64,000 nucleotides of DNA. It comes from Smithellaceae bacterium (GTDB lineage: Bacteria > Desulfobacterota > Syntrophia > Syntrophales > Smithellaceae). A program made the translations under genes and the position numbers. The notes under the pieces were generated by a model that was given only the letters and a program-made list of their open reading frames with translations, made no database searches and was not told the DNA's origin. Location: positions 404,148 to 468,147 of the forward strand of contig CAXXVL010000001.1 of assembly GCA_963667845.2 (NCBI GenBank). Reading direction: 5' to 3'. Positions 4,900 through 25,517 of the stretch are shown piece by piece. Each line of letters opens with the position of its first letter. Within the stretch, counting starts at the first letter, position 1.

Positions 4900-5463
4900 A
4901 TGAAACCGACAGAAATTCTCAAAGACGAACATAAACTGGTTCTCCTGATGCTTAAAATCATGGAAGCGGTGGCCGTCAGGCTTGATCAGGACAAACCTGT
5001 AAACACGGATGATCTTGAAGCCATCATCGATTTCATCCGCACCTTCACGGACAAATGCCATCATGCCAAAGAAGAAAAGCACCTGTTCCCCGCGCTGGAA
5101 AAAGCCGGGATGCCGCAAAATGACGGACCTATTGCCGTGATGCTCCGCGAACACGAGCTCGGCCGCAGCTATACCAGGGAAATGGACGGAGCGCTCGGCC
5201 TGATGAAGAGCGGCGATGCGTCTCGCGCGAAGACTTTCGTGGAGAACGCCCGCGGCTATATCCAGCTGCTGATCAACCATATCGACAAGGAAGAGCGCGT
5301 ACTGTTCGTCATGGCCGATCAGCTGCTGAGCCCTGCGGCGCAGGCGGATCTTGCGGAAGGCTTTGAACGCGTCGAACGCGAGGAAACGGGCGCCGGCGTT
5401 CACGAAAAGTATCACGCCCTTCTCCACAGGCTGCGTGATGCCTATCTCCAGGCGTCGGGATGA
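4900..5463 (+). CDS. Hemerythrin-like (HHE cation-binding) domain protein
   Basis: AGGAGGG RBS then ATG at 4900. Starts MKPTEILKDEHK; has CHHAKEEKHLFP, MLREHE and INHIDKEE, i.e. spaced His/Glu ligand motifs of hemerythrin-like domains. Confidence 0.8.
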   Translation: MKPTEILKDEHKLVLLMLKIMEAVAVRLDQDKPVNTDDLEAIIDFIRTFTDKCHHAKEEKHLFPALEKAGMPQNDGPIAVMLREHELGRSYTREMDGALGLMKSGDASRAKTFVENARGYIQLLINHIDKEERVLFVMADQLLSPAAQADLAEGFERVEREETGAGVHEKYHALLHRLRDAYLQASG

Positions 5464-5536
5464 GTGGACTTTCGGAGGCGTTGATTGGGAACTCTCTTTG
5501 TAGAGCCAGGAAAAGCTTTAGTTGAAAGGAGGATTT

Positions 5537-5944
5537 ATGATGATGAGCCGGCTGAAGACAATTGTTGTATTGATGGTTTTGCATATTCTCCTGTCGAGCA
5601 GTCTGATCGTTGCTGACGCAGACGCCGATAACGTCGTTTATATCAACAACGCAACTGCTTTCACCCTTACTGTCAGCGCGAAATGCATTGAATGCGGAAT
5701 TTTCGGATGGGGGAACGAGAATGACTGCTGGGACGCAAACCCTGTAAGCAAAACCCTGGATTCCCTTAAAGCAGGGTCTGTAAACTGTTTGCCGGTCACC
5801 GGACACAAATTCTTCGTCAAAGAAGTGACCATCACGAGCACGGTAAACAAGAGTTGTACTTTCCAACCACCCGCGAATTCAGACAGTACGTGGTATGTAA
5901 CATTATCGCTCGACAAATCTTATTTCAGTTGTACGAGGCAGTAA
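5537..5944 (+). CDS. Hypothetical exported protein
   Basis: AAGGAGG RBS, ATG at 5537, signal peptide (MMMSRLKTIVVLMVLHILLSSSLIVADA), several Cys. No recognisable family. Confidence 0.6.
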   Translation: MMMSRLKTIVVLMVLHILLSSSLIVADADADNVVYINNATAFTLTVSAKCIECGIFGWGNENDCWDANPVSKTLDSLKAGSVNCLPVTGHKFFVKEVTITSTVNKSCTFQPPANSDSTWYVTLSLDKSYFSCTRQ

Positions 5945-6048
5945 GAAAAATTGTACCTGGCTCCTTTTTGCACTGCATTTTATCATCTCTCCGGCAGGAG
6001 ACGAAGACACTTTAGAAAAGGAAGAATAACAGGAAAGGGAAATTAAAG

Positions 6049-7569
6049 ATGGCTTCCGAAAACATTCCCGTGATTATCGGTGCAGGCCAGGTGACAAAGA
6101 AGGAGGCGTCACGTGTGATCGACGGCTCGCCTGTGGATCTGATGGCCGAGGCCGTCGTGGTTGCGGCACAGGACGGCGGTTTGACAAGGCAGTGCCTTCA
6201 AAAAGCCGACCTGCTTATCACCACTTCGCTTTTTTCGGATGACGGTATTATCAACCCTCCGGGATGCGTGGTCGATAAACTTGATCTCTCCGATGCACAA
6301 TGTATGGTTTCCGGATTTGGCGGCATCATGCCGCACGCCATGCTGCATCATGCCATGAAAGCGGTCGCCGAAAACAAAGCCGGTCTGGTTCTCCTGACCG
6401 GAGCCGAAGCTCAGCACACCATGCAGCAGGCGAAAAATTCCCGGACATTTACCGGCTGGAAGGTAACATCTCAGCGCCCCTGCCTTGCGCCGCTGACTTC
6501 CCGGGGAGCGTTTGACGGAGCCTGCGAAACAGAACACATCCACGGTCTTTCGCTTCCCGCGACTGTCTATCCCATGTTTGAAAACGCGCTGCGCCGGCGG
6601 TATGGACGCACGATTACGGAACATACCCGCAAGCTGGGCGAGCTGATGAGCCGTTTTTCACACGTGGCGGCAAACAACCCGCTAGCCTGGTTTCGCGAAC
6701 CGCTTACGCCCGAGGAAATCATTACCGTTTCCGATGCCAACCGCAACACCGCATTTCCTTATACCAAGCGGATGAATGCCATGCTTGGGGTCGACCAGGC
6801 CGCCGCCCTCATTGTTACATCGGAGGCGCAGGCCCGGAAGATGGGTATTGACCCGGCAAAGTGGGTGTATCTGCATGGCTATGCCGAGGCCAGCGATCAC
6901 TGGTATATCCTGGAAAGAGAGGCCTACGGTTTTTCCCCGGCCATTGATATCGTCGGCCGAACTGCCCTCGCGCAGGCCGGCGTGACCATCGCAGACATCG
7001 ATTTCTTCGATCTGTACAGCTGCTTTCCCGTTGCCGTGCAGGTGACCCGCGACATGCTGGGCATTGCCGAAAACGATAATAGGCCGCTGACTATTACCGG
7101 AGGACTTCCCTATTTCGGCGGACCGGGAAATGACTACGTCATGCACTCCATGGCGCAAATGGTTGAGCTTCTGCGTCAACATCCCGGGAAGACCGGCCTT
7201 GTCACCGGTAATTCTTTTTACATGACCAAGCACTCGGCGGCCGTGTGCTCTACCACGCCCCCAAAAGACAATGCGGCGGCTACAGCCGATGTAAGCGTTT
7301 GCCAGAAAGCCGTTGACCTGCGGCCCAAACATCAGATTGATCCCAGGCCCGATGGGCGGGGTACAGTGGAGACCTATACCGTGATTTACGACCGGAACAA
7401 TTTGCCGGGTAAAGGCGTTGTCATCGGAAAAGAAGAAAATGGAAAACGTTTCGCGGCATTCACGCCGCCCGACCCATCTCTGTTTTCAGCAATGGTTACA
7501 GAAGACTTTTGCGGCACGACAGGGACGGTCGTATCCAAAGACAACGTCAACACCTTCACCCCCGATTGA
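6049..7569 (+). CDS. Thiolase-superfamily protein (acetyl-CoA acetyltransferase-like) with extra C-terminal beta-rich domain
   Basis: 506 aa. N-terminus IPVIIGAGQV, candidate nucleophile Cys in AQCMVSGFGG, C-terminal thiolase-like LTITGGLPYFGGPGNDY, then a tail of about 100 aa (GRGTVETYTVIYD...). Confidence 0.7.
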   Translation: MASENIPVIIGAGQVTKKEASRVIDGSPVDLMAEAVVVAAQDGGLTRQCLQKADLLITTSLFSDDGIINPPGCVVDKLDLSDAQCMVSGFGGIMPHAMLHHAMKAVAENKAGLVLLTGAEAQHTMQQAKNSRTFTGWKVTSQRPCLAPLTSRGAFDGACETEHIHGLSLPATVYPMFENALRRRYGRTITEHTRKLGELMSRFSHVAANNPLAWFREPLTPEEIITVSDANRNTAFPYTKRMNAMLGVDQAAALIVTSEAQARKMGIDPAKWVYLHGYAEASDHWYILEREAYGFSPAIDIVGRTALAQAGVTIADIDFFDLYSCFPVAVQVTRDMLGIAENDNRPLTITGGLPYFGGPGNDYVMHSMAQMVELLRQHPGKTGLVTGNSFYMTKHSAAVCSTTPPKDNAAATADVSVCQKAVDLRPKHQIDPRPDGRGTVETYTVIYDRNNLPGKGVVIGKEENGKRFAAFTPPDPSLFSAMVTEDFCGTTGTVVSKDNVNTFTPD

Positions 7570-7694
7570 ATAGGGTGACACTAGCGTTAGGGAGCAGTAG
7601 GGATGTCCGCTGGTTCCCTTATCCTGTTTGGCGCTTACAACGCCGCGGGACTGCGGTCAGCCAGCATGCCCGCGAATCAAAATTGGATGCGTTT

Positions 7695-8507
7695 CTATTT
7701 TTTTGTCCGTACAAATTTTTCGATTTGTTGAGAAAACCATTCTGGCTTTTCAATCATCGGCGCGTGTCCGCACTGAGGAATCGTTTCCAGCACAGTATCA
7801 GAAATATTTGCCTGGAATGCTTTCGCGACATCCAACGGAGTGATCCGATCTTCTTCCCCCCAGAGCAGCAACGTCGGTACTTTTAAGCCGGATAATTCAT
7901 TTTTCAGATTGTCCTCTTTAACACTTCGCGCGGCATAAATCGTATTCAATACGGCCCGTTTATCCCTGCTGAATTTCACAATTTCCTCAACCATCTCATT
8001 CGTAATAAACGAGGGATCATAAAAGACAGAAACAATATTTTTTCTAATGTCTTTACGCGTTGGATTGGTGGGAATAATTTCGGTTATACCGGACGGCGCA
8101 GACAATATTAATCCGGAAATCAGTTCCGATCTCGCAAGACACAAACGCAAGGCCACGTGCCCGCCAAGAGAATTACCGCATAAAAAAACGCGGTCCAATT
8201 CACGGCTTCTAATGAAATATTCCGTCCATAAAGCCAATGCTTTAACGCTGACGGCATCCCTCTCTCCTATAAATATTGGAAATGAAATAGATATCGGACG
8301 CGCAAAACGGGCCAGTGAATCAAAAACGCCCGCCCAATTAGAGGATGCGCCAAGCAAACCGTGCAACAACAAAATGTAGGGGCCCTGATGACCGCCTTCT
8401 TTGACTTCAATAAACGGAACGCGCTCTTCTTTGATCCATTGCGGCGGTTCCGAAATCATCCATTTGGCTGACTCTTGAAGTTTTATGATAATATCATGAT
8501 GAAGCAT
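7695..8507 (-). CDS. Alpha/beta-fold hydrolase
   Basis: LLLHGLLGASSNW oxyanion region, nucleophile elbow GNSLGGHVA, C-terminal catalytic His in PQCGHAPMIEKPEWF. Confidence 0.88.
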   Translation of the reverse strand: MLHHDIIIKLQESAKWMISEPPQWIKEERVPFIEVKEGGHQGPYILLLHGLLGASSNWAGVFDSLARFARPISISFPIFIGERDAVSVKALALWTEYFIRSRELDRVFLCGNSLGGHVALRLCLARSELISGLILSAPSGITEIIPTNPTRKDIRKNIVSVFYDPSFITNEMVEEIVKFSRDKRAVLNTIYAARSVKEDNLKNELSGLKVPTLLLWGEEDRITPLDVAKAFQANISDTVLETIPQCGHAPMIEKPEWFSQQIEKFVRTKK

Positions 8508-8971
8508 GCATCAGGACGCTTTCTGTATAACATCAAATGAACCATCGGTTTTAAAAGTCATGCGCGGTTTATGGAAGCCGCGTTCGGGGCTCCTGTTTCT
8601 CTCCGGCGCGTGCAAGACAATAAATTTTTCGCGGGCCTGTTGCGGACTTCCCGGCACAAAACCTTCGGCCGATTTGTGCCGAAGCATTTTCGTGGGTTGT
8701 GCCCGCAGACGCAAGGCTTGTATCCTTTATGTTAAAGGTATGTCAAGTGACACATTTTGACCTTGCCCTCTTTTCTAAAAAGGGGAGAGGTGTCTCTGAA
8801 ACATAGCGGGCGGTTCTCTTTGATCGGGATAAATTAACAATACGGAGTAAAGTTCAAAAATAAAACGAAAAAAAATAGAGTCATTCCCTTTTTCCTGAGG
8901 CGTGCAATTTTCTATTTCCTGAATTTGTGCTAGGCTGCAAAAAAATAAATATGAATTGAGCGGAATATTTT

Positions 8972-9526
8972 ATGCCAAATAATACAGACAGAATTCCGGG
9001 CCTGGCCGAATGCGAAGAACTCATGGCCCGATATGCCATGCTGCCCAATATCGTCGAACATTCCTTTCAGGTGATGCGCGTCGCGCTGGCCATTACCGAC
9101 AATCTCGTAGACGGTGTTTCCATTAATCGCGACATGGTCATTGCCGGGGCGCTGCTTCACGATATTACCAAAACCCGGTCGCTGCAAACAAAAGAAAGGC
9201 ACGCGGCATCGGGCGGCGCTCTTTTGCGCGAACTGGGATTTCCTCTGATTGCCGAGATTGTTGAGCAGCATGTCGTTATCGACCTGAATCCGGCAGGGCC
9301 GATCGTTGAAAAAGAAATCGTTTATTACGCCGACAAGCGGGTGATGCACGACAAAATAGTGACCTTCGAAGAAAGGGTCCAGGATTTATTAATCCGCTAC
9401 GGAAAAACGAATGAGATATACAATCTGATTCTGCAAAACCTGCAGCACGTCACATCGGTTGAACAAAAGCTTAACAGTTTTATGAAAATCGACATCCATG
9501 ATGCGATAAGGAAAATAACCGGATAG
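8972..9526 (+). CDS. HD-domain (HDIG-type) metal-dependent phosphohydrolase
   Basis: EHSFQVMRVA ... GALLHDITKT ... YYADKRV, the H..HD..D pattern of HD superfamily proteins. Confidence 0.8.
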   Translation: MPNNTDRIPGLAECEELMARYAMLPNIVEHSFQVMRVALAITDNLVDGVSINRDMVIAGALLHDITKTRSLQTKERHAASGGALLRELGFPLIAEIVEQHVVIDLNPAGPIVEKEIVYYADKRVMHDKIVTFEERVQDLLIRYGKTNEIYNLILQNLQHVTSVEQKLNSFMKIDIHDAIRKITG

Positions 9527-9575
9527 TCTCCGCAAAAGTTAAAAAGTTGGCAGCCTCTGTTTTTTGAATGAATCT

Positions 9576-9596
9576 GAATTGATATTTTGAAGTCCC
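9576..9596 (+). repeat. REP-E short dispersed repeat core, copy 1
   Basis: The core AATTGATATTTTGAAG plus a downstream CCCT is shared exactly with 22342-22368 and 25518-25542. Confidence 0.7.
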
Positions 9597-9619
9597 TATC
9601 GTCGCACTAAGGAGATGGC

Positions 9620-10618
9620 ATGGCAAAGATTAATACGGTACTCGGTCAAATTTTACCTGGTGAGCTTGGAAAGACTTTGGTCCATGAGCATTGCGTTATT
9701 GGATTTTCAGGATGGGAGTGCGATCCCTTGCCGGGAGGTCCCAGTCGGGCGGAAATGATCGAAAAATGTATACAGGCGCTGCTGCCGGCACGGGATCTGG
9801 GTCTGCAGTCGATTATCGAAGCAACACCGCCTGATCTGGGTCGGGATGTCGAGATCCTGAAGGCTGTCTCGGAGAGCACAGGGGTCCACATCATATGCTC
9901 AACGGGCCGATATACCGAAGAGTACGGCAAGTGGGCCTACCTGAAGCAAAGAGACAGGCTCGGGGCGTGCGACCTGCAATCCGAGCTCTATGATGCTTTC
10001 ATGTACGAAATTACAGTCGGAATCGGGCAGTCCGAAGTGCGGGCGGGGGCGATCAAGGTGGCTACTTCCCTGAACAGAATGGCCCCCTGCGAGGAAGCGG
10101 TCCTGGCTGCCGCAGCGCGGGCCTCAAAGGAAACGAGTGTTCCCATTATCACGCATACGGAAGGCGGCACATTAGGGCCCGAACAGGCAAAGTTTCTTCT
10201 GGCTGAGGGTGTAGCCCCGGGACGCATCATGATCGGCCATATGTGCGATAACCTCGGGAGCGATTATCAGGGGGATCAGAAGGAAGTCATGCAGACCGGA
10301 TCCAGCATGGCTTACTATCGCTTCGGGCTCGAGGTTTACGTCAAAGATGACAAGCGGGTCGAAGCCCTAGCCGCGCTTATTGGCGAGGGATATGCCGAAA
10401 AAATTATGATCTCTCACGATTATGTCGGCGCGTCTCAGGGGAGGGGCGGGATGTGGCCGAATCGCCTTCCTGCGCAAATAGAATCGCTGGTGCCGAACTG
10501 GTCCTACACCAACATCTTTCGGCGAATCCTACCTGCTCTGAAAGAAGCCGGCGTCACCGATCAGCAAATCCATACTTTGATGGTTGAAAATCCCCGGCGG
10601 CTCTTGGGATCAAGTTGA
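9620..10618 (+). CDS. Phosphotriesterase-family (PTE/PHP) amidohydrolase
   Basis: AAGGAG RBS. Metal-ligand motifs TLVHEHC, AIKVATS, IITHTEGG, GHMCD, MISHDY in the order expected for the PTE family. Confidence 0.85.
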   Translation: MAKINTVLGQILPGELGKTLVHEHCVIGFSGWECDPLPGGPSRAEMIEKCIQALLPARDLGLQSIIEATPPDLGRDVEILKAVSESTGVHIICSTGRYTEEYGKWAYLKQRDRLGACDLQSELYDAFMYEITVGIGQSEVRAGAIKVATSLNRMAPCEEAVLAAAARASKETSVPIITHTEGGTLGPEQAKFLLAEGVAPGRIMIGHMCDNLGSDYQGDQKEVMQTGSSMAYYRFGLEVYVKDDKRVEALAALIGEGYAEKIMISHDYVGASQGRGGMWPNRLPAQIESLVPNWSYTNIFRRILPALKEAGVTDQQIHTLMVENPRRLLGSS

Positions 10619-11793: not shown

Positions 11794-12040
11794 TCTTTAT
11801 CTCCTGCGACCTGCGGATTATGATTGAATCGCCTCAGCAAGAAAATGAAAGTAAATCGTGCTGCAAAGAACGCGGGCTTTTTCATCATTATCCCTTTTGG
11901 GGGAGCGTTAACGAACGTTGGTGTGATTTTTCTTATCACAAGTCACCGAACAACCATAGCGTAAAGCGGCGCGTCGTCAGGCAGGCAGAAGAGAAAACGA
12001 CCGGCGCATGTTTGATGGCGCAAAGTGCCGGGGGCGGTGG

Positions 12041-12219
12041 CAGTTGAACCGGGGCATCCCATCGCTCAGCATGCCCTACAACTGTGGCTCTAAGGCTCGC
12101 GGAGCGAGAGCCGAAAACTCGCCCTGCGGGCTCAGACAGTTCGGCTCTCTTTTGCTCCATTTCGCCAAGAGCCACAATATTTCGGGCATATTCGCTCATG
12201 GCATGCCCCGGTTCAACTG
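12041..12219. repeat. 179-bp element bounded by perfect 17-bp terminal inverted repeats (MITE-like or structured RNA)
   Basis: CAGTTGAACCGGGGCAT (12041-12057) is the exact reverse complement of ATGCCCCGGTTCAACTG (12203-12219). The interior holds short GC hairpins (CTCGC-GGA-GCGAG, GCCC-TGC-GGGC). Confidence 0.7.
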
Positions 12220-12433
12220 CTGTTTCTTCTTGCAATGTTTTTGAGAAGTTGTATATTGAGCGCCGGATTTCAAAAGAGCAGTAGCTTCACATTTGTCAGT
12301 TCAATTATCCTCGAAAGGAAGCGCAGGGTGATTAAATGAGACATCTCAAAACGGCATCATAAAATAGTTAGCAAATACAAAATACTAATGAGTGGCTGAA
12401 AAATGATTTTTCAAGACCCCATTCTTTGACCCT

Positions 12434-15400
12434 ATGGTAAGTGAAAGAAATCCAATACAAAACCCTGCTTGGCTAAATTCGCCACCAGAACCAACTTTTC
12501 CCCTGCCTCCGACAGCTACTCGTGCACAAACATTACCTTATCATGAGCTTTCTTGGGAAAATTTCGAACGGCTGATTCTTCGAGTTGTTCGACGAGAGGC
12601 AACCGTTGCCGAATGTTGGGTCTATGGTGAACGTGGCCAAGAACAATATGGATTGGATATCTTAGCCGAATTGCGTAACGCCCCAGGTGAGTTTGCGTGT
12701 TACCAATGCAAACAAGTTAAAAAGTTCTCTGCAACTGATATCAAGAATGCCGTTAATAAATTCCTTCAAGGCAAATGGGCCTGTACGACAAAACGCTTTG
12801 TCCTATGTACCTCATTGCAACTTACCAAAACCAACCAGGTTACTGAAATTTCAAAACAAAGGGATGCGCTCAAAGCGAAAGGAATTGAGTTTGTAACCTG
12901 GGACGGCACTGAAGCAGGGCATCTATCTGAGCATCTCAAAAAATACCCTGACTTGGTAGACGATTTCTTTCTTAGAGAATGGGTTCGTCTCTTCAATGGT
13001 TCGGATGCGGCAGATTCCCTCGGTGAAAGGCTTGATGGAGGGAACTTAGCGGAACTCCGCGTTCAACTTCGGGATATCTACTCAACATTGTTCCATCGAA
13101 ACGATCAAGGGATTCGCCTAGGCAACAGTCGGACATTGCCGCTGCTGGATCGATACATTTCTCCAGCAGTTATCGAAAGAAAGGAAGTTTTCGCAACTCG
13201 TGGGGTACTGGCAGGAAGCATGGCTAGTTCGAAAGACCAATCGTATTCCGAGGGACGACAGGAAGAAAGTCAAGGTCGATCAACTCTAGTGACGACAATC
13301 CAAGAACTGCGAACACCTGTTGGAGATTGGCTTTCTCGGCATAATAGATCAGTAATTCTGGGCGATCCTGGATATGGGAAAAGCGTATTATTACGTATTG
13401 TCGCACTGCAACTGTTGAACGGTTTGGACGATCCATTTTCTTTGCCGTGGCATGGTTTTTTACCGGTTTGGATTTCATTTGGTGGGTTTAGCGCAGCGAT
13501 CCAGCGCCAAAATGGTATCAGCCTTGAAGACTATTTTGACCAATGGTTACATCAGCATGGTGCTGATCACATTCGCCCATTGTTTCGGAGGGCAGTCATA
13601 CACGGAGAGATATTGCTTTTGATAGATGGCTTGGATGAAGGCCAAAATTTACATGCCGCCCAACAAGCCATGGACCGGCTCAGCACCTTCTTATCAATTC
13701 GTCCAATCCCCGCTGTTTTTACTAGCCGACCACGAGGTTATACGCAGGTGCGCCCCGATAGCGCCTGGCCCTTGGCACGGCTGGCATCATTCGACGAACC
13801 ACAAATCGAATGCTTCGCTCGTTCTTGGTTCAAACACTTAGAAACTCCAGAAACTGCCGCCGAAAAGGGACCTAATTGGGAAGAGTTCAGTACAGAACAA
13901 CGGAAGGATGAATTTCTGAAAGCCATTCGTTCTAACCCTAGCATAATAGATTTAGCCCGAACTCCTCTCTTCTGCCAGTTGTTGATAGACGTCTTTCGCT
14001 TCTCCCATCATTTACCTGAGCAACGCATCAAGGTCTATGACAAAATCATTGACCTGCTTTTGTCGGATCACCCCATGGCGCGCGTTCAGGCTGCCGGAAT
14101 ATTGGATCTTTCCGCATATGCACCAAGGACGGAGGATATGCGCGAAATGTTGATTCGTTTGGCACTTCATATTCAATTTGAAGGCGGTGCCGGTGTAATC
14201 TCTGCTAAGGATTGCCAAACCGTATTTTATGATTTCCTGACAGATGATATCAATGGCCCTGGATATTCACTATATGAAGCACAGCATCGGGCTAAATCCG
14301 TTATTGACTATGCACAAACGGGTTTGGGCTTGATAGTGGAGAGAGCTCCTAACGAGTTGGGCTTTTTTCACACTACTATGCAGGAATATTTGGCCGCACA
14401 AGCTATGGTTCGTAAGGAAGAACAAGAGCAGATAGATTGGCTGGCTGGTGTTTGGGATCAACCCCGGTGGCATGAAGTTGTTCTCGCCTGGTTCAGCATA
14501 ATGGGTGCCGTACAAGGGAAAACAACCACACAGCGTGCAATCGACCATCTCAAGCAGGCTGCGGCAGGTCCTTGGGCAAAACTACAACTCTTACGCTTGC
14601 GTGTCGAACTTGCCGCCAGCGATTTTGGTTTGTCGCCACGCGAGGCAAGAGCCACTATCGAAGAGGCAGCGAATCAAGTCGAAACCATACCATTCCCTGA
14701 AATACGACAAGAGATGGCTCGCTACATTGCTCTCGGTCTTCGTTCATCTTCTGTCGCCTGTCAATGTGAAGAACGAATTGCTAACTGGGTGCCCGCACGG
14801 TCGGAATGGGCAAGGGCCAATCTTTTACAAGTATTTGGTAACTGGCAAATGTCTAAAGACCTGCTGAGCACCCTCAAGTTGGCTTTACATGACGAAAGCG
14901 GACAGTGCCGCTGGGCAGCTGCCGAGACCATAGCAAAGGTATTCGCATCTGATGTGACAGTTGGTGAACATTTGGTTACAATAGCAACAAATTGGCCAGA
15001 TACGGGTGTTCGTGCGGCAGCGCTGCATGGGTTAGGGCTGGGTTGGCCAAAGCATGAAGCATTGAATGACTTGACCGACGCCGCCAGCAGCTCAAACGAT
15101 ATGGACTTGGCATTGACCGGTATCTCGCTTCGAGTTGCGAACCACCGGCATGATGACCATGACCGCCAGAGGATTTGGTTCATGTTTACCCACGGCAGCG
15201 TATCTTATGAGATGCGTGAATTTTGCCGCATGACGTTGATACAGGGGTGGAGTAAAGATGAAGAATTCAAACAATTAGGAATGGAGGCGCTTCGCAATCG
15301 TTGGAGGAACGACATAAGATTTGAGGAACAGCAAATTCTTTTCTTTCTGACTGAATCGTGGCCTGGAGATAGCGATGTCGGAAACAGTATTGCGGCCTGG

Positions 15401-17368
15401 TTTAAGAGTCTTTCCGGAACTTTTCTCATTCATGAGCATAATAAATGGGAAAGCCTCTTTAAAGGTTTTCGATGTAATAGGGAACTGTCCTATGTTCTCA
15501 AAAATGCTTTGGCGGATAGGAAAGCAAAGTATCCCTCAATTTTTTGGGGTCCTGAGGAGAAATGGGCATACTGTGTGATCGGCGATAATAATGCCAAGTT
15601 GGATGTACTCAATGCCTACTCTTCTGTGAATGGCAATATAAACAAGTATTGGATCGTATCGACCCTCATGGAAGCATGGCCCGACGATATTGACGTCAGA
15701 GAATTACTCAGCCATGAATTTCAGCGATTGCCCGGAGAAGTAGCCTTCCTTGCAAAATGGATTGATGCTTTCATGCCGGAACCTGAAAAACGCCGTGCAT
15801 GGCTTCTCGAAGCAGTGAGACAATCTGATCTTCGCTCTTTCAGAAATCCAGTTAACCGCCTCTTGATGGAATTCCACGATGAGAAATGTCTGGAAACGTT
15901 GCTTGCGGTTCTCGAGAAGGACATCTGGTATTATGACAAGATAGAAATTGAAAACCAGCTCATTGAGAACTTTCCGCACGTACCGAAGGTTCGCCAATTG
16001 GCAGAGTCATCTTTTGTTGAAATAGATGGCCCCGCTTTATCTTCCGTTGCCAGAGGATATCAACAAGACCCACTTATCCGTAATCGGCTAATGAGAACCG
16101 CACGTCCTGCCAAAGCCGACGTGAGAAGAGAAATCTTCAGAGTATTTCGAGAATACTCGATCCCCAGAGATAAGGGATTGCAACTGACTGAGGATATATG
16201 GGCCGAAGAAAAAGGTGAGATTCGCAGTGCTGGTGTAGTCGCACGTTGCATGATGGTATCTCAAAGTCCGGAGCTGAAAGTGTCGTTGGTGACAAAACTG
16301 CAAGCGGAAATAAAATCTCTCGGCACTTACTTTGAGATGCGTCGACGTGCAGCCTTCGCTGGTTTTCTGCAACTGGGCGAATACGCTTATTGCATCGAAG
16401 TAATTTCAGAGAAATCACCATCATCTACCTATTGGCTGGCCGATTATCATGACACCGATGCTGTTACAGGTCATATGTTGTTCGAACATTGGGATAAATT
16501 ATATGAAGCCTTGGGGAAACAAACCATGGCTTTTGATATGCCCTGGGGAGCACTTGTTTACAATGGGACAGTGAGAGAAGCTTTATCTATCAGTACGGCC
16601 CGTGTTAAATTGATAGATTATTTGAAGACAATGAGACCGGTGGACCAATCGGCAGAAAGCCTTGCACTCATGGCTGAGTTGCTGCCAAATTCTGGTGAAC
16701 TTCGCTCCTGCTTGATCGAAACTATCAAAGAAGGGAACCGTGGTAATATCTCCTATGAGGCTCAGAAGATTCTAGCCGAGCAATTTGGTGGTGACGAGCA
16801 AATATTGATGGAGCTTCAAGAGTCTTGGACTAAACATAACTGGCCTTCTACGATACATCCACCATTTCTTTATGCATTAATACTTGGCTGGCCGAACAGT
16901 CCTTTGCTTCACCCTTATTTAGGGCAGCATGATTTACCAGATGATTTTCCACTAATTTTTGCAATAGCTTTATGTGGGATCACTGGTAAGGAGAATCATG
17001 CCTTAGCCTGCATTGATTCAATGATTCGAATTTCGCTAAGAGACGGTAGAGCGTTGCCTGATATCTATTTGCAATGTTTGCTCAACTGGACACATTCACC
17101 TAACGCAGAAAAACTTTTGCGATGTTTAATTAATGATCAGCACCCGTCGCGCAAGATCACTGCAATAGGGCTACTTTCTACTATTGGGAAACTTACCAAT
17201 GAAGACCGTATGATGTTTGTGCGGCAGTTTGATGATTTGTTCGGGGATACTGCGAAGTCTTGCCCAGACGGATTATCCTTAATAAATTGTGCAGTTATGA
17301 CGCTACCTCAAGCAATATTCCGCTTTTTAAATCCATCACTAAATAATGATTATAGGGGTGACTTCTAA
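12434..17368 (+). CDS. NLR/STAND-type protein: N-terminal Mrr-like PD-(D/E)xK nuclease + NACHT NTPase + long HEAT/ARM-like repeat region (candidate antiphage sensor-effector)
   Basis: 1644 aa. Nuclease motif GLDILAE...CYQCKQVKK (aa 73-97). Walker A GDPGYGKS (nt 13361-13384), Walker B ILLLIDGLDE (nt 13610-13639). NACHT hallmarks ARTPLFCQLL and FFHTTMQEYLAAQ. HEAT-like helices from about aa 700. The gene is visibly AT-richer than its flanks. Confidence 0.85.
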   Translation: MVSERNPIQNPAWLNSPPEPTFPLPPTATRAQTLPYHELSWENFERLILRVVRREATVAECWVYGERGQEQYGLDILAELRNAPGEFACYQCKQVKKFSATDIKNAVNKFLQGKWACTTKRFVLCTSLQLTKTNQVTEISKQRDALKAKGIEFVTWDGTEAGHLSEHLKKYPDLVDDFFLREWVRLFNGSDAADSLGERLDGGNLAELRVQLRDIYSTLFHRNDQGIRLGNSRTLPLLDRYISPAVIERKEVFATRGVLAGSMASSKDQSYSEGRQEESQGRSTLVTTIQELRTPVGDWLSRHNRSVILGDPGYGKSVLLRIVALQLLNGLDDPFSLPWHGFLPVWISFGGFSAAIQRQNGISLEDYFDQWLHQHGADHIRPLFRRAVIHGEILLLIDGLDEGQNLHAAQQAMDRLSTFLSIRPIPAVFTSRPRGYTQVRPDSAWPLARLASFDEPQIECFARSWFKHLETPETAAEKGPNWEEFSTEQRKDEFLKAIRSNPSIIDLARTPLFCQLLIDVFRFSHHLPEQRIKVYDKIIDLLLSDHPMARVQAAGILDLSAYAPRTEDMREMLIRLALHIQFEGGAGVISAKDCQTVFYDFLTDDINGPGYSLYEAQHRAKSVIDYAQTGLGLIVERAPNELGFFHTTMQEYLAAQAMVRKEEQEQIDWLAGVWDQPRWHEVVLAWFSIMGAVQGKTTTQRAIDHLKQAAAGPWAKLQLLRLRVELAASDFGLSPREARATIEEAANQVETIPFPEIRQEMARYIALGLRSSSVACQCEERIANWVPARSEWARANLLQVFGNWQMSKDLLSTLKLALHDESGQCRWAAAETIAKVFASDVTVGEHLVTIATNWPDTGVRAAALHGLGLGWPKHEALNDLTDAASSSNDMDLALTGISLRVANHRHDDHDRQRIWFMFTHGSVSYEMREFCRMTLIQGWSKDEEFKQLGMEALRNRWRNDIRFEEQQILFFLTESWPGDSDVGNSIAAWFKSLSGTFLIHEHNKWESLFKGFRCNRELSYVLKNALADRKAKYPSIFWGPEEKWAYCVIGDNNAKLDVLNAYSSVNGNINKYWIVSTLMEAWPDDIDVRELLSHEFQRLPGEVAFLAKWIDAFMPEPEKRRAWLLEAVRQSDLRSFRNPVNRLLMEFHDEKCLETLLAVLEKDIWYYDKIEIENQLIENFPHVPKVRQLAESSFVEIDGPALSSVARGYQQDPLIRNRLMRTARPAKADVRREIFRVFREYSIPRDKGLQLTEDIWAEEKGEIRSAGVVARCMMVSQSPELKVSLVTKLQAEIKSLGTYFEMRRRAAFAGFLQLGEYAYCIEVISEKSPSSTYWLADYHDTDAVTGHMLFEHWDKLYEALGKQTMAFDMPWGALVYNGTVREALSISTARVKLIDYLKTMRPVDQSAESLALMAELLPNSGELRSCLIETIKEGNRGNISYEAQKILAEQFGGDEQILMELQESWTKHNWPSTIHPPFLYALILGWPNSPLLHPYLGQHDLPDDFPLIFAIALCGITGKENHALACIDSMIRISLRDGRALPDIYLQCLLNWTHSPNAEKLLRCLINDQHPSRKITAIGLLSTIGKLTNEDRMMFVRQFDDLFGDTAKSCPDGLSLINCAVMTLPQAIFRFLNPSLNNDYRGDF

Positions 17369-17430
17369 TCTATTTTGCCTCTGATGGTTAGAAAAGTGTC
17401 TATGAAGCGAGCGGGACGCTCGTAAAGTAA

Positions 17431-17520
17431 TAAGTTTCTAAAAGATAACGTTCTTCAACACATCACTTACCGAGCATTGGAACAGGATTGGGATCACTTC
17501 TTCCAGGCTTTGATGTTCAA
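17431..17520 (+). repeat. REP-B dispersed repeat, copy 1
   Basis: TAAGTTTCTAAAAGATAACGTTCTTCAACACATC...GGAACAGGATTGGGATCACTTCTTCCAGGCTTTGATGTTCAA aligns over about 90 nt (roughly 80% identity by eye) with 19849-19937 in the same orientation. Confidence 0.8.
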
Positions 17521-17553
17521 GGGGGCCATTGGGGGCGTCCCCAATGGCGCACA

Positions 17554-17715
17554 TTACGGTATTTTTTCGCATCTTCCATTCGCGTAAATAGCAGCCCTGC
17601 CGTCGTGATCGGGATGGCATAGGACGGGCTTCGTGTAACATTGGCAGTTCAATACTGATAATAGGATTATTAAGCTGATGACCGATATCACCGCCATAGA
17701 AATTTTCCTTTTCAT
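17554..17715 (-). CDS. Possible small exported Cys-containing peptide (53 aa)
   Basis: ATG at 17715 preceded by AAAGGGG. Encodes MKRKISMAVISVISLIILLSVLNCQCYTKPVLCHPDHDGRAAIYANGRCEKIP: signal-like N-terminus and 4 Cys in the tail. Found by hand; below the ORF-track cutoff. Confidence 0.25.
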   Translation of the reverse strand: MKRKISMAVISVISLIILLSVLNCQCYTKPVLCHPDHDGRAAIYANGRCEKIP

Positions 17716-17876
17716 ATTTACCCCTTTCTTTATTCCATCGCTTGACCTGTCTTAGTTTTATACAGCGCATTAGCCATTTCTCTAGCGAGGGCAGGATGAT
17801 GTTCCGCTTGATCCCAGGAGTGCAGTACTGTTTAAGACTGAAATTGAATGGTGATAGCAGTGCCCGGACTTTTATT

Positions 17877-17905
17877 AAAATATGGAGAGGATAGTATAAT
17901 GTCAA
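17877..17905 (-). promoter_or_regulatory. Sigma70-like promoter candidate reading leftward
   Basis: On the minus strand, TTGACA (17905-17900), 17-nt spacer, TATTTT (17882-17877). About 160 nt upstream of the small ORF at 17715. Confidence 0.3.
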
Positions 17906-18032
17906 TTGATAGAATTATACTACAGCATGGCAAGCCTTCATGGGTTTTGTTTTTAGGTAATCATTGCAGGAAGACGGGGCGACACAACACTTAATTATTT
18001 TTTTCACGATGAGGGAACCCGAGGGACGCCCT

Positions 18033-18662
18033 CTATCTCTCGATTATCAGCCGTCGGAAATTCTCGCGAAGGCTCTCGCCGATTGTTTTATCTTCACCAA
18101 GATTATCGAGGGCAAACGCAATTGCTTCGATTGTGGAAAGGCCCCCCTCGCGGGTTTGCGCGCGGAGCGACGCATGCGCGGGGTTCAGTGAGATGCGGTT
18201 TAGTTTCAGGAACCAGGGATTGCGCCACCACAGCGTTTTTGCCTGCTTCCATGACCCGTCAAGTGCGATGATCCCTTTCAGAAATCCGGAATCGGTGATG
18301 CGCTGTTTCTTCCGGTCCAAAATGGCGACGGGTGGATCCGAGGCATTGCCTTTGCTGTCAAGAAACAGGATTCCCCATTGTGAAGGCATTGCGGATTCCC
18401 CCGCAACCGACTTGAATCCGTTCCAGGAGAGGCCGACACGAACGTCGCTGTTCTTCAGCATGATGTTGGTGAGCCAGGCGGAATTGAGCTCTTTGTATTG
18501 TTCCTGCGGGTGCTGAAGAATGATCACAGAGATTCGGTTCTCGAGAACCGGCGCCTTTGCGCAGAGGCACTCATCCTGGTCCCGGTGGCATTTCGGACAT
18601 GCCCGCTGGCGGTCGATTTTCCGGTGCACTCTGGGATCCCGGAATTTGACGGATTGGACCAT
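18033..18662 (-). CDS. DTW-domain protein (tRNA-uridine aminocarboxypropyltransferase family)
   Basis: N-terminal Cys cluster CPKCHRDQDECLC, ILQHPQE, then IALDGSWKQA (a DTW-motif variant) and a distal GLSTIEA region. Confidence 0.78.
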   Translation of the reverse strand: MVQSVKFRDPRVHRKIDRQRACPKCHRDQDECLCAKAPVLENRISVIILQHPQEQYKELNSAWLTNIMLKNSDVRVGLSWNGFKSVAGESAMPSQWGILFLDSKGNASDPPVAILDRKKQRITDSGFLKGIIALDGSWKQAKTLWWRNPWFLKLNRISLNPAHASLRAQTREGGLSTIEAIAFALDNLGEDKTIGESLRENFRRLIIER

Positions 18663-18985: not shown

Positions 18986-19822
18986 ATGACTGAAAAAACA
19001 AGAAAGCGACGGGATCGGGGGAGATTGTCTTTTCTTGTCCTGCTCACGATCGTTTTCTCAGCGGTATTGGTACCGATCTTAACTGCAACGGTCGAGGGAA
19101 AAACCGTGTGCCCTATACCCCAGAAAGGGAGCATTCCCATGAAGCAGTCCAAACAGAATGAGGCGTTGCCCAGCAGGGTTTTGCCGCCGATAGACCTTAT
19201 CAAACCGGCTGCAACGGAGATAGCCACCTTTGCCATGGGGTGATTCTGGGGTCCAGACGCCCGGTTCGGGCTTGTCAAAGGAGTTATCCGTACCCAGGTC
19301 GGCTATACCGGAGGAACCTCAAAGGATCCAACCTATACCCTGCTGGGAGACCACAGTGAATCCATCCGGATCGAATACGATCCGAAAAGAGTTTCCTATG
19401 AGACGCTCTTGGAAATCTTCTGGAAAAATCACTCGCCAGGGGAACGATCTTATTCACGTCAGTACGCAGCCTTCATCTTCTATCACAACGAAAAACAGAG
19501 GAAGGCGGCAATTGACTCCCGCAAGGCGGTGGCAATGACAATCAAGGGGCCCATCTACACGGAAATCGTCCCGGCTTCAACGTTCTACCCGGCCGAAGCC
19601 TATCATCAGAAGTACGGGTTGCGGTCCGAGAAGGCGCTGATGCAGGAGTTCCGTTCTTTTTATCCGGAGGACGATCATTTCGTGGCCTCAACGGCAGCAG
19701 CAAGGGTAAATGGTTATGTCAGCGGTGACGGCACATCGGCGGAGCTGGAGATGGAACTCGCCTCTCTTGGTCTTTCGGAGGCGGGACGCCAGAGACTTCG
19801 CAGCATTGTAAAATCAAAGTAG
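18986..19822 (+). CDS. msrA: Peptide methionine-S-sulfoxide reductase MsrA, selenocysteine form (in-frame UGA at 19241-19243), with N-terminal membrane anchor/signal
   Basis: ORFs 18986-19243 and 19409-19822 share one frame, with no other stop between them. The TGA replaces the catalytic Cys of the GCFWG motif (ATFAMG-U-FWGPDARFG). Downstream MsrA motifs: VGYTGG, DPTY, EIFW, AEAYHQKY. Confidence 0.85.
19256..19276 (+). promoter_or_regulatory. Candidate bacterial SECIS hairpin for msrA
   Basis: GAC-GCCCG-GTT-CGGGC-(TT)-GTC stem-loop starting 15 nt after the U of UGA. GU is in the apical loop, as expected for SelB-binding hairpins. Confidence 0.55.
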
Positions 19823-19848
19823 GCGCCGACTGGCCACAAGTAAAATTT

Positions 19849-19937
19849 TAAGTTTCTAAAATCGACGTTCTTCACGACATCAATTTGCCGGGATTGGAAC
19901 AGGATTCGGGTCACTTCTTCCAGGTGTTGATGTTCAA
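19849..19937 (+). repeat. REP-B dispersed repeat, copy 2
   Basis: Aligns with 17431-17520. Abuts the stop codon of the CoA-transferase gene (19943). Confidence 0.8.
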
Positions 19938-19942
19938 TGATG

Positions 19943-21136
19943 CTAGATGATCTTCTGCTCTTTGAATTTTTCTAAATCTTCCGTGTTGTATCCCAGGACA
20001 TCACCATAAATGGAGTCGTTATCTTCACCAAGCAGTGATGCCCGCCTGGCTACAGACCCGGGTGTCCGGGACAATTTAATCTCGACGCCCGGTACGGGAA
20101 CAATCCCGCTTTCCGGATACTCAAGTTCAACAAGCATTTCCCGGGCCGATACCTGGGGAACTTTCAGCGAGGCGGGAACATCATTGACCGGTCCGCAGGG
20201 CAATCCCGCCTTGTCCAGTATGGCCATAACTTCGGCAACCGTCTTATCTTTAGTCCATTCCTCAATGACCACATCCACGTCCTGATAATTGCGGTATCGC
20301 GCAAGATTGTCTTTGAAACGTCGATCGGTAATCATGTCTTCGCGCTTAAGGATTTGGCACATGCGCCGCCACATGCTATTGCCGACGATATTCATCACAA
20401 CATAACCGTCTTTCGCCCGGGCACTGCAGCAATACGCGTAAAAGCCCCCGTTGCCTACGGGCTTCCTGATTTCCCCGTTGACCAGGTACTCGGAAGCGCA
20501 ACCTGATGCCGCGGCCATCCCGAAAGCGACGTCGAAAAGCGCGACATCCACCAATTGCCCCACTCCGCTGTGATAACGTTCATGCAGGGCCAGCATGGCG
20601 CCAAGCGCCGCCCGGGCTCCCGTATTGAAGTCGATAAAATTGAGACCCGGACGAAGTGGGGGATCGCCGGGATACCCCGTAAAGCTCATGATACCGGACA
20701 TTGCCTGAGCAATGACGTCGAAACAGGGGCGTTCGGCATAGGGTCCTGTCTGTCCGAAACCGGATACGGCAACGACGATCAAGGCCGGATTAACTCCGCT
20801 CAATCGTTCATAATCGAAAACATTGGCTTCTTCCGTGCCTTTCGGGCTATTGTGGACCAGGATGTCTGTTTCTTTGACAAGCTCATCCAGAATTTGCCTG
20901 CCTTTGTCCGTCCGCAGATTCAATGTAATATTCTTTTTGTTCCGCTGATAAGACAGGCCGCAAGTCATCGATTGACCATCCGGTGCGAAAGGCCCCAGTT
21001 CGCGGTCAACTTTTCCTCCCGGAGGTTCTACACGAATGACGTCCGCGCCATGATCCGCCAGCATCATGCAACAATAGGGCGCCGCGATGTAGCCGCCCAT
21101 GTCCAGCACCTTGATTCCATCAAGCGCTCGCTTCAC
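19943..21136 (-). CDS. Family III CoA-transferase (CaiB/BaiF type)
   Basis: LDGIKVLDMGGYIAAPYCCMMLADHGADVIRVEPPGG N-terminal signature. Start set at the GTG at 21136 (AAAGGA RBS); the ORF is open up to 21205. Confidence 0.88.
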   Translation of the reverse strand: MKRALDGIKVLDMGGYIAAPYCCMMLADHGADVIRVEPPGGKVDRELGPFAPDGQSMTCGLSYQRNKKNITLNLRTDKGRQILDELVKETDILVHNSPKGTEEANVFDYERLSGVNPALIVVAVSGFGQTGPYAERPCFDVIAQAMSGIMSFTGYPGDPPLRPGLNFIDFNTGARAALGAMLALHERYHSGVGQLVDVALFDVAFGMAAASGCASEYLVNGEIRKPVGNGGFYAYCCSARAKDGYVVMNIVGNSMWRRMCQILKREDMITDRRFKDNLARYRNYQDVDVVIEEWTKDKTVAEVMAILDKAGLPCGPVNDVPASLKVPQVSAREMLVELEYPESGIVPVPGVEIKLSRTPGSVARRASLLGEDNDSIYGDVLGYNTEDLEKFKEQKII

Positions 21137-21371
21137 GATTAAATCCTTTCTGAACTGAGGGGATGCCCCATGAATTCTAAGTTTCCAAGGGGCAACGTTC
21201 TGCAAAGCACCTTAGCATCTTTTCGGGTTTCTCTCTATCATGTCTAGGACCAAGCGGGACGCCCTTAAGCAATACATTCATGGATCTGCCAGGCTTGATG
21301 CCCATGGGACGAGACACCCAGACGCTGTTCACTTATGACTCCTGAGAAGTAAACCCGCTTTTTTTGTCTTC

Positions 21372-23833: not shown

Positions 23834-23936
23834 TTGAAAAAATATCCGACAGCCGGAATGCTATACTGGCAAGGATTTTAAGCTATTTGTATTGAAGAAG
23901 TTAATAAATTTACAGCGTCCCCTTGGTCTCACCCGA

Positions 23937-25151
23937 TCAACGGCAGTCTCCACTAACTTTAGTTTTTTTTAACAATTCGCAGCTTCCCAGTGCGCACGCT
24001 TTTTTTGCGTCAGAACAGCCAAGCGTGATTTCACCCGACGATAAATAAGCATATCCCCGCATAGAGTAGGCGGAGCCATCATCCGGTTTCAGGCGGATGG
24101 CTTCATCATAATCATTGATGGCCGGTTTATAGCGTTCCAGTCTGGCATGAAAAGATCCTCGTATCCTGTAAGCGTCCGCATAATCCGGTTTCAGGCGAAT
24201 GGCCTCGTTTAGATATTCAATGCCCTTCAGGAAATCAGTGAGTTCTGTGCTGTTATTCAGAATAAGCGCCTTGCCGTACCATGCCTCTGCAGCGCCGATT
24301 GCTGCATCAGAATCTCCAGGCGCTTTCGATTGACCAACGGGCAGCGTGTCTCCAAAAGTCTCTGCTGTCGCCGACCCTTTGCTTTTGTTGAAGTTTTTTA
24401 TTTGTGGAATTGCGAACAGAATGCCGCCGACCACTATCATAACCACGATAACCGTCATATATAGCGCAAACGATTCCCCTATACCGTGTAACTTTGTTTT
24501 CCAGCTGGCGCCGTTTTGTTTTCTGTGTTTTTTCCGTACCGGCTCGTCTGCCCTGAACCCGACTTCTTCCCCTTTCAGTTTACACCTGACTATTCTCAGC
24601 TGTCTCACGAAGAAAGGTGTGACGTCATACAATCCCGGTACAAATTCTTCGGCGAATCTGAGGCATCCCGAGAATACGCAAAATGTGGGAACAAAAGCAA
24701 CAGTAAGAGCTGTGTCCATGTTCTTGAAATAGCCCGTGTAATGAATATAAAGTGCGACAATATATGTTAAAGGCAGTCCTGCGAAAATGATGCGGCCAAA
24801 AAAACCCCTGAAAGAATAGAAATATTGGATGATATGCAGAAATTTTAACAGCGCGCCGACGATGAAACAAATTAATAAAGAAGTCAGTGTCAGATTAAGT
24901 GTGAGGCCGACAATATTTCTACTGAATAAATCATTCGTGATGCGATAACTTTCTTCGTAAAATACCGCATATGCCTGTCCCACTTGCGTATATGTAAATA
25001 TAAGCCACAGGTATTTTGAATAATATAAAAGAAAAATATAGGCGAGTGCTGTGAAAGCAAATAGCAATATAAGCTCTGCAACTCCGCCCACCGGCTTTTT
25101 AAAACGGGTGAGTAATTTTGCCGCTTTAATTTTGAGCTGCTCTCGATTCAT
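23937..25151 (-). CDS. Multi-pass membrane protein with C-terminal TPR repeats
   Basis: About 5 hydrophobic helices in the first 250 aa, then TPR-like repeats (AWYGKALILNN..., YADAYRIRGSFHARLERYKPAINDYDEAIRLKPDDGSAYSMRGYAY). Confidence 0.7.
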   Translation of the reverse strand: MNREQLKIKAAKLLTRFKKPVGGVAELILLFAFTALAYIFLLYYSKYLWLIFTYTQVGQAYAVFYEESYRITNDLFSRNIVGLTLNLTLTSLLICFIVGALLKFLHIIQYFYSFRGFFGRIIFAGLPLTYIVALYIHYTGYFKNMDTALTVAFVPTFCVFSGCLRFAEEFVPGLYDVTPFFVRQLRIVRCKLKGEEVGFRADEPVRKKHRKQNGASWKTKLHGIGESFALYMTVIVVMIVVGGILFAIPQIKNFNKSKGSATAETFGDTLPVGQSKAPGDSDAAIGAAEAWYGKALILNNSTELTDFLKGIEYLNEAIRLKPDYADAYRIRGSFHARLERYKPAINDYDEAIRLKPDDGSAYSMRGYAYLSSGEITLGCSDAKKACALGSCELLKKTKVSGDCR

Positions 25152-25228
25152 TTCAAAATAATCCTGCTCTATTTTGTCTTCTCATTCATTCAGCGTGGAA
25201 TATCAACATTGGGGGCAGGTTTTGAAAT

Positions 25229-25318: not shown

Positions 25319-25517
25319 CTACTATGGGACGTACTTCAATATATTAAAATAATATGGACAGTGCCCTGTTTGGGATATCGAGGAGATGATTTGTTTTTCT
25401 TTGGCCTGCGCTGCCTGTTTCGTGAATCATAAATAGAGGGGGTGTTCTATTCACTGAGAGAGGTATTGAAAAATCAGAGATGAATAATGGAACCGTGCGA
25501 TTTTTCGCAAAGCACAT

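Follow-up and report, generated by a model that had tools for sequence, protein, structure and literature searches.

A candidate single-gene NLR-related immune receptor with a predicted Mrr-like nuclease, a NACHT module and a HEAT-repeat arm in a Smithellaceae bacterium

The DNA analysed here is a stretch of 64,000 nucleotides from a Smithellaceae bacterium (assembly GCA_963667845.2, contig CAXXVL010000001.1, positions 404,148 to 468,147 of the forward strand), referred to as the window and numbered from its first letter. At positions 12434-17368 of the plus strand, an ORF scan identified a single long and intact open reading frame (ORF) with an ATG start and 1644 codons plus stop, whose product joins a predicted Mrr-like nuclease domain, a NACHT-type STAND NTPase module and a long HEAT-repeat arm and is a candidate NLR-like defence protein. 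A first-pass annotation, made from the letters alone, had described this ORF and quoted nine peptide motifs from it; all nine are present at the right residues and nucleotides, including K316, D398 and E402. The start codon is taken to be correct because the N-terminus is kept in homologs (consensus M.....PAWL..PP). An identical protein was found on four contigs of public assemblies, one of which, a metagenome contig of 646 kb, has the gene among the neighbours that flank it in the window. The gene (hereafter the NLR gene) is composed of the following features:

12434..17368, plus strand: whole gene, coding for a single-gene NLR-like candidate defence protein (1644-codon ORF; full-length homologs)
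12434..12538, plus strand: proline-rich N-terminal extension, aa 1-35 (Q32, L34 and P35 invariant in 29 sequences)
12539..12913, plus strand: Mrr-like PD-(D/E)xK nuclease domain, predicted effector, aa 36-160 (Mrr_cat, LmuA match, model)
12566..12568, plus strand: E45, acidic residue in the first helix of the nuclease core (56/57 sequences)
12656..12658, plus strand: D75, predicted catalytic aspartate in the second core strand (57/57 sequences)
12704..12712, plus strand: Q91-C92-K93, (Q/E)xK half-motif in the third core strand (Q91 57/57, K93 56/57)
12914..13333, plus strand: helical linker and beta-hairpin, aa 161-300 (alignment and model; disordered loop at 258-282)
13334..13843, plus strand: NACHT nucleotide-binding domain, aa 301-470 (Pfam NACHT; Foldseek NLRC4, NOD2, NLRP3)
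13361..13384, plus strand: Walker A motif GDPGYGKS (G310, G315, K316 and S317 invariant)
13610..13639, plus strand: Walker B motif ILLLIDGLDE (D398, G399, D401 and E402 invariant)
13844..14533, plus strand: helical and winged-helix domains, aa 471-700 (containing FFHTTMQEYLAAQ with H646, 56/57)
14534..17365, plus strand: HEAT-repeat solenoid, predicted sensor arm, aa 701-1644 (AlphaFold2, Foldseek, Pfam HEAT_2)

Residue conservation was assessed in an alignment of 57 full-length homologs, which are 79% down to 24% identical to the window protein. Invariant throughout are D75, Q91, K316, S317, D398, D401, E402 and R432, and E45, K93 and H646 are kept in 56 of the 57 sequences. Conservation is highest in the nuclease domain. 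D75, Q91 and K93, which the first-pass annotation had proposed as catalytic, stand, its E79 falls at a variable position (R/E/V/A/T), and E45 joins the conserved set. As the D-QxK residues do not vary in over 50 sequences, with identities as low as 24%, catalysis appears to have been retained. The fold was examined in an AlphaFold2 model of residues 1-720, built from the 57-sequence alignment (mean pLDDT, the predicted local distance difference test, 85.6; predicted template modelling score, pTM, 0.84). The modelled elements follow the order helix 41-55, strands 56-64, 73-80 and 87-93, helix 100-112 and strand 119-125. This alpha-beta-beta-beta-alpha-beta core is that of restriction-endonuclease-fold enzymes, with D75 located in strand 73-80 and Q91-x-K93 in the adjacent strand 87-93; the spacing of the D...QxK residues is that of the Mrr variant of the PD-(D/E)xK motif.

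In profile searches, Pfam Mrr_cat was matched by 17 of 29 family members at E<=0.01 (best 5.3e-6), one member also matched Mrr_cat_2, and four homologs carry a precomputed PF04471 hit; the window protein itself reached 14.1 bits at residues 37-132, which is below the Pfam cut-off of 21. Its sole match in PADLOC connects aa 39-181 to positions 18-162 of the LmuA profile (E 3.4e-6), and the two nuclease domains are therefore related. Nothing was found when the window protein was compared as a single query with solved structures by sequence. Foldseek searches with whole models were dominated by the NACHT module, also in a viral library, where the only possibly relevant match was the RPB5 subunit (rank 23, E 0.011, 133 columns), which was treated as weak. 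The N-domain of RPB5 has a restriction-endonuclease-like fold.

The NACHT domain was recognised by Pfam at residues 306-468 with 36.2 bits (cut-off 26.7) and in 29/29 family members. Further along the module, ARTPLFCQLL occupies residues 508-517 and FFHTTMQEYLAAQ residues 644-656. When the model was compared with the PDB using Foldseek, the closest structures were NLRC4 (E 4.4e-11), NOD2 and NLRP3, with E-values ranging up to 1e-8. Ranks 1-30 were all taken by animal NACHT NLRs (NLRC4, NOD2, NLRP3, NLRP7, NLRP9 and the NLRs of the oocyte cytoplasmic lattice), followed by Avs3 at rank 31 and Avs4 at rank 34 and, below them, by CED-4, plant NB-ARC proteins and ORC/Cdc6. The NTPase is regarded as a true NACHT because its best structural matches are NLRC4, NOD2 and NLRP3, with Avs and other STAND/AAA+ proteins ranking lower. 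H646 would be the equivalent of NLRC4 H443, as judged from its position and from Kibby et al.

The arm was modelled separately (residues 691-1644; AlphaFold2, pLDDT 91.4, pTM 0.91) and consists of about 57 helices with one small hairpin near the end. Its Foldseek matches were karyopherin-beta proteins (Kap121, Kap123, importins, CRM1), the HEAT regions of mTOR and CAND1, at E-values from 5e-6 to 1e-3 and with the low TM-scores usual for flexible solenoids; no Avs sensor was found among the top 50 structural matches. Pfam HEAT_2 was matched at residues 789-867 (30.6 bits, cut-off 27.7) and by 20 of the 29 family members, and a family profile recovered from the PDB alphaRep HEAT proteins at residues 806-867 (E 1.4e-14) and AP-2 beta-adaptin at residues 1460-1594 (E 3e-5). 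With a Pfam HEAT_2 score above the cut-off and a superhelix of helical hairpins in the model, the predicted arm is of the HEAT type and neither TPR nor WD40. The first-pass annotation had likewise proposed a Mrr-like nuclease, a NACHT module and a long arm lacking TPR and WD40 repeats, an architecture that is upheld by the profile matches, the catalytic conservation and two confident structure models.

The strongest motif outside the active sites is the near-invariant PDLVDDFF.R.W (aa 172-183, nt 12947-12982), which lies in the linker between nuclease and NACHT. Residues 11-40, which include part of the proline-rich N-terminal extension, were modelled with a pLDDT of 79-90; the extension may conceivably act as a latch.

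Homologs were collected in several searches. A word-indexed search yielded 178 at E<=1e-5, the best 120 of which span E=0 to 5e-120, values at which homology is far beyond chance. Almost all of them measure 1,590-1,690 aa, and the family has a fixed length of about 1,600-1,700 residues; named sources are Syntrophales, Acidobacteriia, Burkholderiales, Gallionellales, Sideroxydans, Halomonas and metagenome-assembled genomes of Pyrinomonadaceae. An exhaustive phmmer search with the arm alone against 1.84 billion cluster representatives (50% identity) returned 467 proteins at E<=1e-3, of which 343 reached E<=1e-10; the family comprises at least 343 clusters at 50% identity, across many phyla. In the full-length matches of this search, which measure about 1,600-1,690 aa, the arm begins near residue 700 and extends to the C-terminus. 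It was seen almost exclusively in proteins of 1,590-1,690 aa and thus appears to be tied to one architecture. Species-representative genomes contributed distant full-length relatives of 1,600-1,870 aa, from Pseudomonas fluorescens CFBP13716, Paraburkholderia solitsugae, Streptomyces, Rhodococcoides, Blastococcus, Myxococcaceae and Ignavibacteria. Across taxa, the family is patchily distributed, with members in Syntrophales, Acidobacteriia, Burkholderiales, Gammaproteobacteria, Ignavibacteria, Myxococcaceae and Streptomyces. Two full-length members reside on plasmids, one on the 564-kb plasmid pASB05p1 of Pantoea agglomerans (WP_158132222.1, 46.7% identical) and one on a conjugative IncHI2A plasmid of Enterobacter hormaechei (WP_063863497.1, 24% identical, BLASTP E 1e-94); the gene of the latter gave no match by megablast in 5,426 E. 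coli genomes.

The protein was compared with characterised systems of similar layout. With bNACHT25 and bNACHT32 (clade 6 of Kibby et al.) it shares the single-gene organisation, an N-terminal effector of the PD-(D/E)xK (REase) fold, a NACHT-type NTPase and the winged-helix histidine. However, bNACHT25 has only 752 aa (REase 2-178, NTPase 185-558, NCH1 575-747), whereas the window protein has 1644 aa and carries a HEAT solenoid of about 950 aa in place of the short NCH1 tail of about 170 aa. Close kinship was rejected, since BLASTP against the first 399 aa of bNACHT25 aligned 102 P-loop residues only (26%, E 2e-5) and left the nucleases unaligned. bNACHT27, a Tox-REase-8+NACHT protein of 1473 aa, was likewise discarded, showing no similarity to the window protein. 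In bNACHT25, the active-site mutation D48A in the PD-(D/E)xK domain abolishes defence (PMC12169576), and mutating the histidine equivalent to NLRC4 H443 leads to nuclease-dependent toxicity.

Among the proteins listed in Table S1 of Kibby et al. (10.1101/2022.07.19.500537), clade 2 contains REase+NACHT and Mrr_cat+NACHT entries with nearly the same domain coordinates, for instance WP_044834066.1 of Thalassomonas (REase 17-132, NACHT 289-737) and an entry from Kibdelosporangium (Mrr_cat 16-132, NACHT 233-703); this link to clade 2 is one of domain-coordinate similarity alone, compared from the listed coordinates. The clade-2 proteins that were tested differ in their effectors (bNACHT20 calcineurin-like, bNACHT27 Tox-REase-8, bNACHT37 SIR2). 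Clade 3 of the same table lists many effector+NACHT+HEAT proteins, and HEAT repeats are named there as a type of C-terminal sensor, but no entry of Table S1 unites REase or Mrr_cat with both NACHT and HEAT (10.1101/2022.07.19.500537). Motifs of the family were absent from the tables of tested proteins of Kibby et al. (Tables S2/S6) and from the incomplete text of the supplementary tables of the bioRxiv version of Lee et al., taken to include Table 1 (656 seed NTPases); homolog accessions were absent from these supplements and from the literature. Because REase+NACHT and effector+NACHT+HEAT proteins are already listed in Table S1, the protein is considered a member of a described class and not a new class, and the suggestion of the first-pass annotation that it might form an undescribed clade overstated its novelty.

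Avs3 and Avs4 (Gao et al.) and Avs7-24 (Lee et al. 2026, PMC13581612) likewise encode, within one gene, an effector of the nuclease type, a STAND NTPase and a large sensor of alpha-helical repeats, and Mrr was among the effector types that seeded the Avs survey (PMC13581612). They differ from the window protein, whose NTPase is closest to animal NACHT and whose sensor is HEAT/karyopherin-like. The PADLOC models of Avs1-5 (AVAST) gave no match to the window protein and two weak Avs2 matches among the 29 members; scattered weak P-loop or nuclease matches of these members (mad8, PtuA, Avs2) were rejected as family assignments. Avs10/Erebus EruA (bNACHT64) was dismissed because its NCBIfam model NF058535 scored 25.9 bits, in the P-loop only, against a cut-off of 1000; the Pantoea homolog reached 33.5 bits and the Enterobacter homolog gave no match. 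The animal NLRs NLRC4, NOD2 and NLRP3 have in common with the window protein the Walker A and B motifs, the winged-helix histidine and the order effector-NACHT-repeat sensor. They carry, however, a leucine-rich repeat sensor and a CARD or PYD adaptor effector instead of a HEAT solenoid and a predicted nuclease, and identity is 12-16%. Lamassu LmuA shares the Mrr-type nuclease domain. Assignment to Lamassu was rejected, given that the LmuA match is confined to the nuclease, no gene for the SMC-like (structural maintenance of chromosomes) protein LmuB lies nearby and LmuA matches 6 of the 29 members. The features that mark bNACHT proteins, namely the Pfam NACHT score, an NLRC4-like fold, the Walker residues with the winged-helix histidine and the effector-NACHT-sensor layout, were all found. 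On sequence grounds, the protein is a bNACHT NLR-related protein that is distinct from bNACHT25, bNACHT27, Avs1-5 and Avs10/EruA.

The genomic context of the family was inspected in 14 neighbourhoods, including that of the window gene. Mobile or defence genes were present within 10 kb in 10 of the 14, a qualitative tally made without a background control, and no gene recurs beside the NLR gene. The ten neighbourhoods contain (i) IS21, (ii) an island after smpB with an integrase, AbiEi and a Dam/DpnII restriction-modification pair, (iii) an integrative and conjugative element (ICE) with F-type tra genes and AbiEi/AbiEii, (iv) around a 35%-identical homolog (locus L091, 1-24932), a dense defence island with an integrase, AbiEi/AbiEii, Piwi+SIR2 (short prokaryotic Argonaute, pAgo), TIR, BrxR and a ThsB-type TIR protein, (v) at locus L092, TrwC relaxase, IS66 and, after the homolog, a 1036-aa metallophosphatase+nSTAND4 protein (15483-18593), (vi) at locus L093, a 1509-aa NACHT-HEAT paralog back to back with the homolog (5278-9807), AbiJ-AAA and a Tn7-like element, (vii) on the Enterobacter IncHI2A plasmid, a phospholipase of the cyclic-oligonucleotide-based anti-phage signalling system (CBASS) and two TIR proteins, (viii) IS21 with an MmeI-type enzyme, (ix) a DDE transposase, and (x) a serine recombinase with Fic, DUF4238, Mrr_cat and GIY-YIG proteins. 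These varied neighbourhoods support the inference of a defence function made in the first-pass annotation, and its view that there is no partner gene holds as well, in that no common neighbour exists in the 14 neighbourhoods and small flanking ORFs in 11 loci were without common similarity, with the exception of loci L091 and L096. In these two related loci, a short upstream ORF (58-102 aa) abuts the NLR start (L091 9825-10001, L096 9670-9978); the two ORFs show 53-56% identity over 34-45 aa and are absent from the window and the other loci. STAND genes cluster at L092 and L093, and metallophosphatase+nSTAND4 is the architecture listed for bNACHT20.

The same contexts bear on whether the protein might serve a mobile element, excluding or competing with rival plasmids or conjugative DNA, instead of providing the host with anti-phage immunity. 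Relatives lie beside the tra genes of an ICE and beside TrwC relaxase, are carried on the IncHI2A and 564-kb Pantoea plasmids, adjoin IS21, IS66, DDE and Tn7-like elements and were not found in the phage records searched, all of which would suit such a weapon. Defence genes generally ride such elements, however, so that context fails to separate the two roles, and the islands hold the anti-phage systems AbiE, restriction-modification, pAgo-SIR2, Thoeris-like TIR and CBASS. Since the window gene, moreover, is chromosomal and has no mobile element nearby, we consider a role as a mobile-element weapon unlikely.

Base composition was determined for 22 genes of the window. The NLR gene has the lowest GC content at third codon positions (GC3 = 0.422; most others 0.57-0.73), which points to a foreign origin by horizontal transfer. 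With a probability of roughly 0.75, the gene is read as a horizontally acquired, stand-alone bacterial NLR-related (NACHT-type STAND) immune receptor, for which a mechanism can be proposed by analogy. This reading builds on observations of domain identity, of catalytic residues kept in homologs, of an unvarying single-gene layout, of mobile and defence genes near relatives and of a foreign base composition.

Several results count against an immune receptor. In the window, no mobile or defence gene lies within 10 kb and the neighbours are metabolic or housekeeping genes; four of the 14 neighbourhoods (the window and three others, including that on Pantoea plasmid pASB05p1) are uninformative, and the tally of the remainder is the uncontrolled one given above. 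The Mrr_cat score of the window protein is sub-threshold, and no solved nuclease was retrieved by sequence with either the full-length or the N-domain profile, the latter giving nothing at E<=10. A tblastn search of 50,697 phage records found no relative, so that carriage on prophages, which is common for defence genes, was not seen. Finally, no PADLOC or NCBIfam defence family claims the protein (window protein and, for PADLOC, the 29 members), in line with the first-pass annotation, which had assigned it to no family.

The housekeeping context and the sub-threshold Mrr_cat score would also fit a non-immune STAND signalling or scaffold protein whose N-terminal domain is DNA-binding or regulatory and not an active nuclease, the more so as STAND clades with and without a role in defence lie intermingled (PMC13581612). 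This we hold to be very unlikely in view of the invariant D-QxK residues, the patchy spread, the foreign base composition and the mobile or defence genes in 10/14 contexts, and neither a DNA-binding regulator domain nor a conserved operon partner was found.

Conservation declines along the chain. Mean identity to the window protein amounts to 0.55 in the nuclease, 0.54 in the NACHT nucleotide-binding domain and 0.49 in the helical and winged-helix domains, and to 0.42, 0.37 and 0.32 in the first, second and last third of the arm, the last third falling to 0.17 in the most distant members. The arm is the fastest-evolving part, most so distally, as expected of an arms-race surface, and conserved enzymatic modules with a fast-evolving distal sensor are the sequence pattern expected of an immune receptor. 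The proposed mechanism is modelled on characterised Avs and bNACHT proteins and on animal NLRs, from which every functional step, from binding of the trigger through oligomerisation and cleavage of DNA to protection, is extrapolated. At rest, the protein would be a closed, nucleotide-bound monomer in which H646 and the Walker motifs keep the NACHT module shut. The HEAT solenoid of about 950 residues would bind a protein that signals infection, either a protein of a phage or mobile element or a host factor perturbed by infection. Binding would free the NACHT module for nucleotide exchange and oligomerisation, just as Avs proteins oligomerise on binding phage proteins (PMC13581612). Oligomerisation could then cluster the N-terminal Mrr-like PD-(D/E)xK domains and switch on DNA cleavage, and invader DNA, host DNA or both would be destroyed, which would stop the spread of the invader (abortive infection).

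The solenoid may alternatively act as a guard, monitoring a host protein or a chaperone-bound state that is perturbed by infection. bNACHT25, which has the same effector class, senses phage through host DnaJ without binding the trigger directly (PMC12169576), solenoids of HEAT repeats like those of karyopherins, CAND1 and adaptins bind protein cargo in general, and conservation of the proximal arm (aa 701-1000) stays fairly high from phylum to phylum, as would suit a conserved host ligand. Guard-type sensing nevertheless appears less likely to us. In far relatives, identity in the distal two-thirds of the arm is down to 17-19%, as would fit a foreign target that evolves fast, and where the trigger of an Avs family has been identified, it is in most cases a phage protein that is bound directly (PMC13581612).

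Tentatively, the karyopherin-like HEAT arm, which is family-specific, confined to the one layout of about 1,640 aa and unlike the sensors of characterised Avs and bNACHT proteins, could recognise a class of trigger that has not been assigned to bacterial NLRs. Candidates could be a component of conjugative elements or of phages that infect anaerobic non-model hosts. If this were true, the family would represent a new pattern-recognition specificity with a HEAT-based mode of recognition.

Bacterial NLR-like proteins are prokaryotic relatives of the innate immune receptors of animals and plants, and each family for which a trigger is found adds one molecular pattern to the list of cues used to detect viruses. 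Members of the present family occur in culturable hosts (Pantoea agglomerans, Enterobacter hormaechei, Pseudomonas fluorescens, Paraburkholderia and Streptomyces). Together with its size, its fixed architecture and its long, confidently modelled HEAT sensor, this makes it a practical target for trigger screens like those that defined Avs7-21, and the current picture of how such systems work is left unchanged by it.

In the window, the NLR gene is preceded by genes for thiolase-like, alpha/beta hydrolase, HD, phosphotriesterase and metallophosphoesterase proteins and followed by genes for a DTW-domain protein, a CoA-transferase, a short-chain dehydrogenase/reductase (SDR) and a poly(A) polymerase. 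No direct repeats bracket the NLR gene, and the window contains no tRNA and no Rfam family. The 640-bp intergenic region upstream of the gene includes an imperfect palindrome or long hairpin of about 190 nt (12036-12225), whose terminal arms (12040-12062 and 12198-12220) are 23 nt long and 96% complementary. Its predicted RNA fold has -107.7 kcal/mol (z = -9.1 relative to shuffled sequences); it is single-copy in the window, has no Rfam match and could be an element resembling a miniature inverted-repeat transposable element (MITE) or a regulatory structure.

A direct repeat of about 99 nt, with copies that are 81% identical, is located at 17422-17520, directly beyond the NLR stop codon, and at 19840-19937, immediately 3' of the minus-strand CoA-transferase gene (19943-21205). 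The two copies enclose the DTW-domain gene and a short ORF (19535-19822) with a weak match to PMSR (methionine sulfoxide reductase); the pair may be the scar of a rearrangement or insertion. A 155-codon ORF on the minus strand (17438-17905), convergent with the NLR gene, was rejected as a partner, as it has no Pfam match and no counterpart beside homologs. Of the two source contigs that include it, one has it as a gene call, and there only in a version shortened to 110 aa. Its 3' end overlaps the 99-nt repeat, and the ORF is unlikely to be a genuine gene.

Farther downstream, the region 23900-31400 has a lower GC content (0.43-0.46 in places) and encodes TPR, Listeria-Bacteroides-repeat/Lcl_C, PKD-domain and DUF6242 proteins, so that it looks like a cluster of surface proteins with a composition unlike that of its flanks. 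At 50151-51536 on the minus strand, a 461-aa protein is encoded that contains a strong caspase domain (Peptidase_C14, E 1.4e-40).

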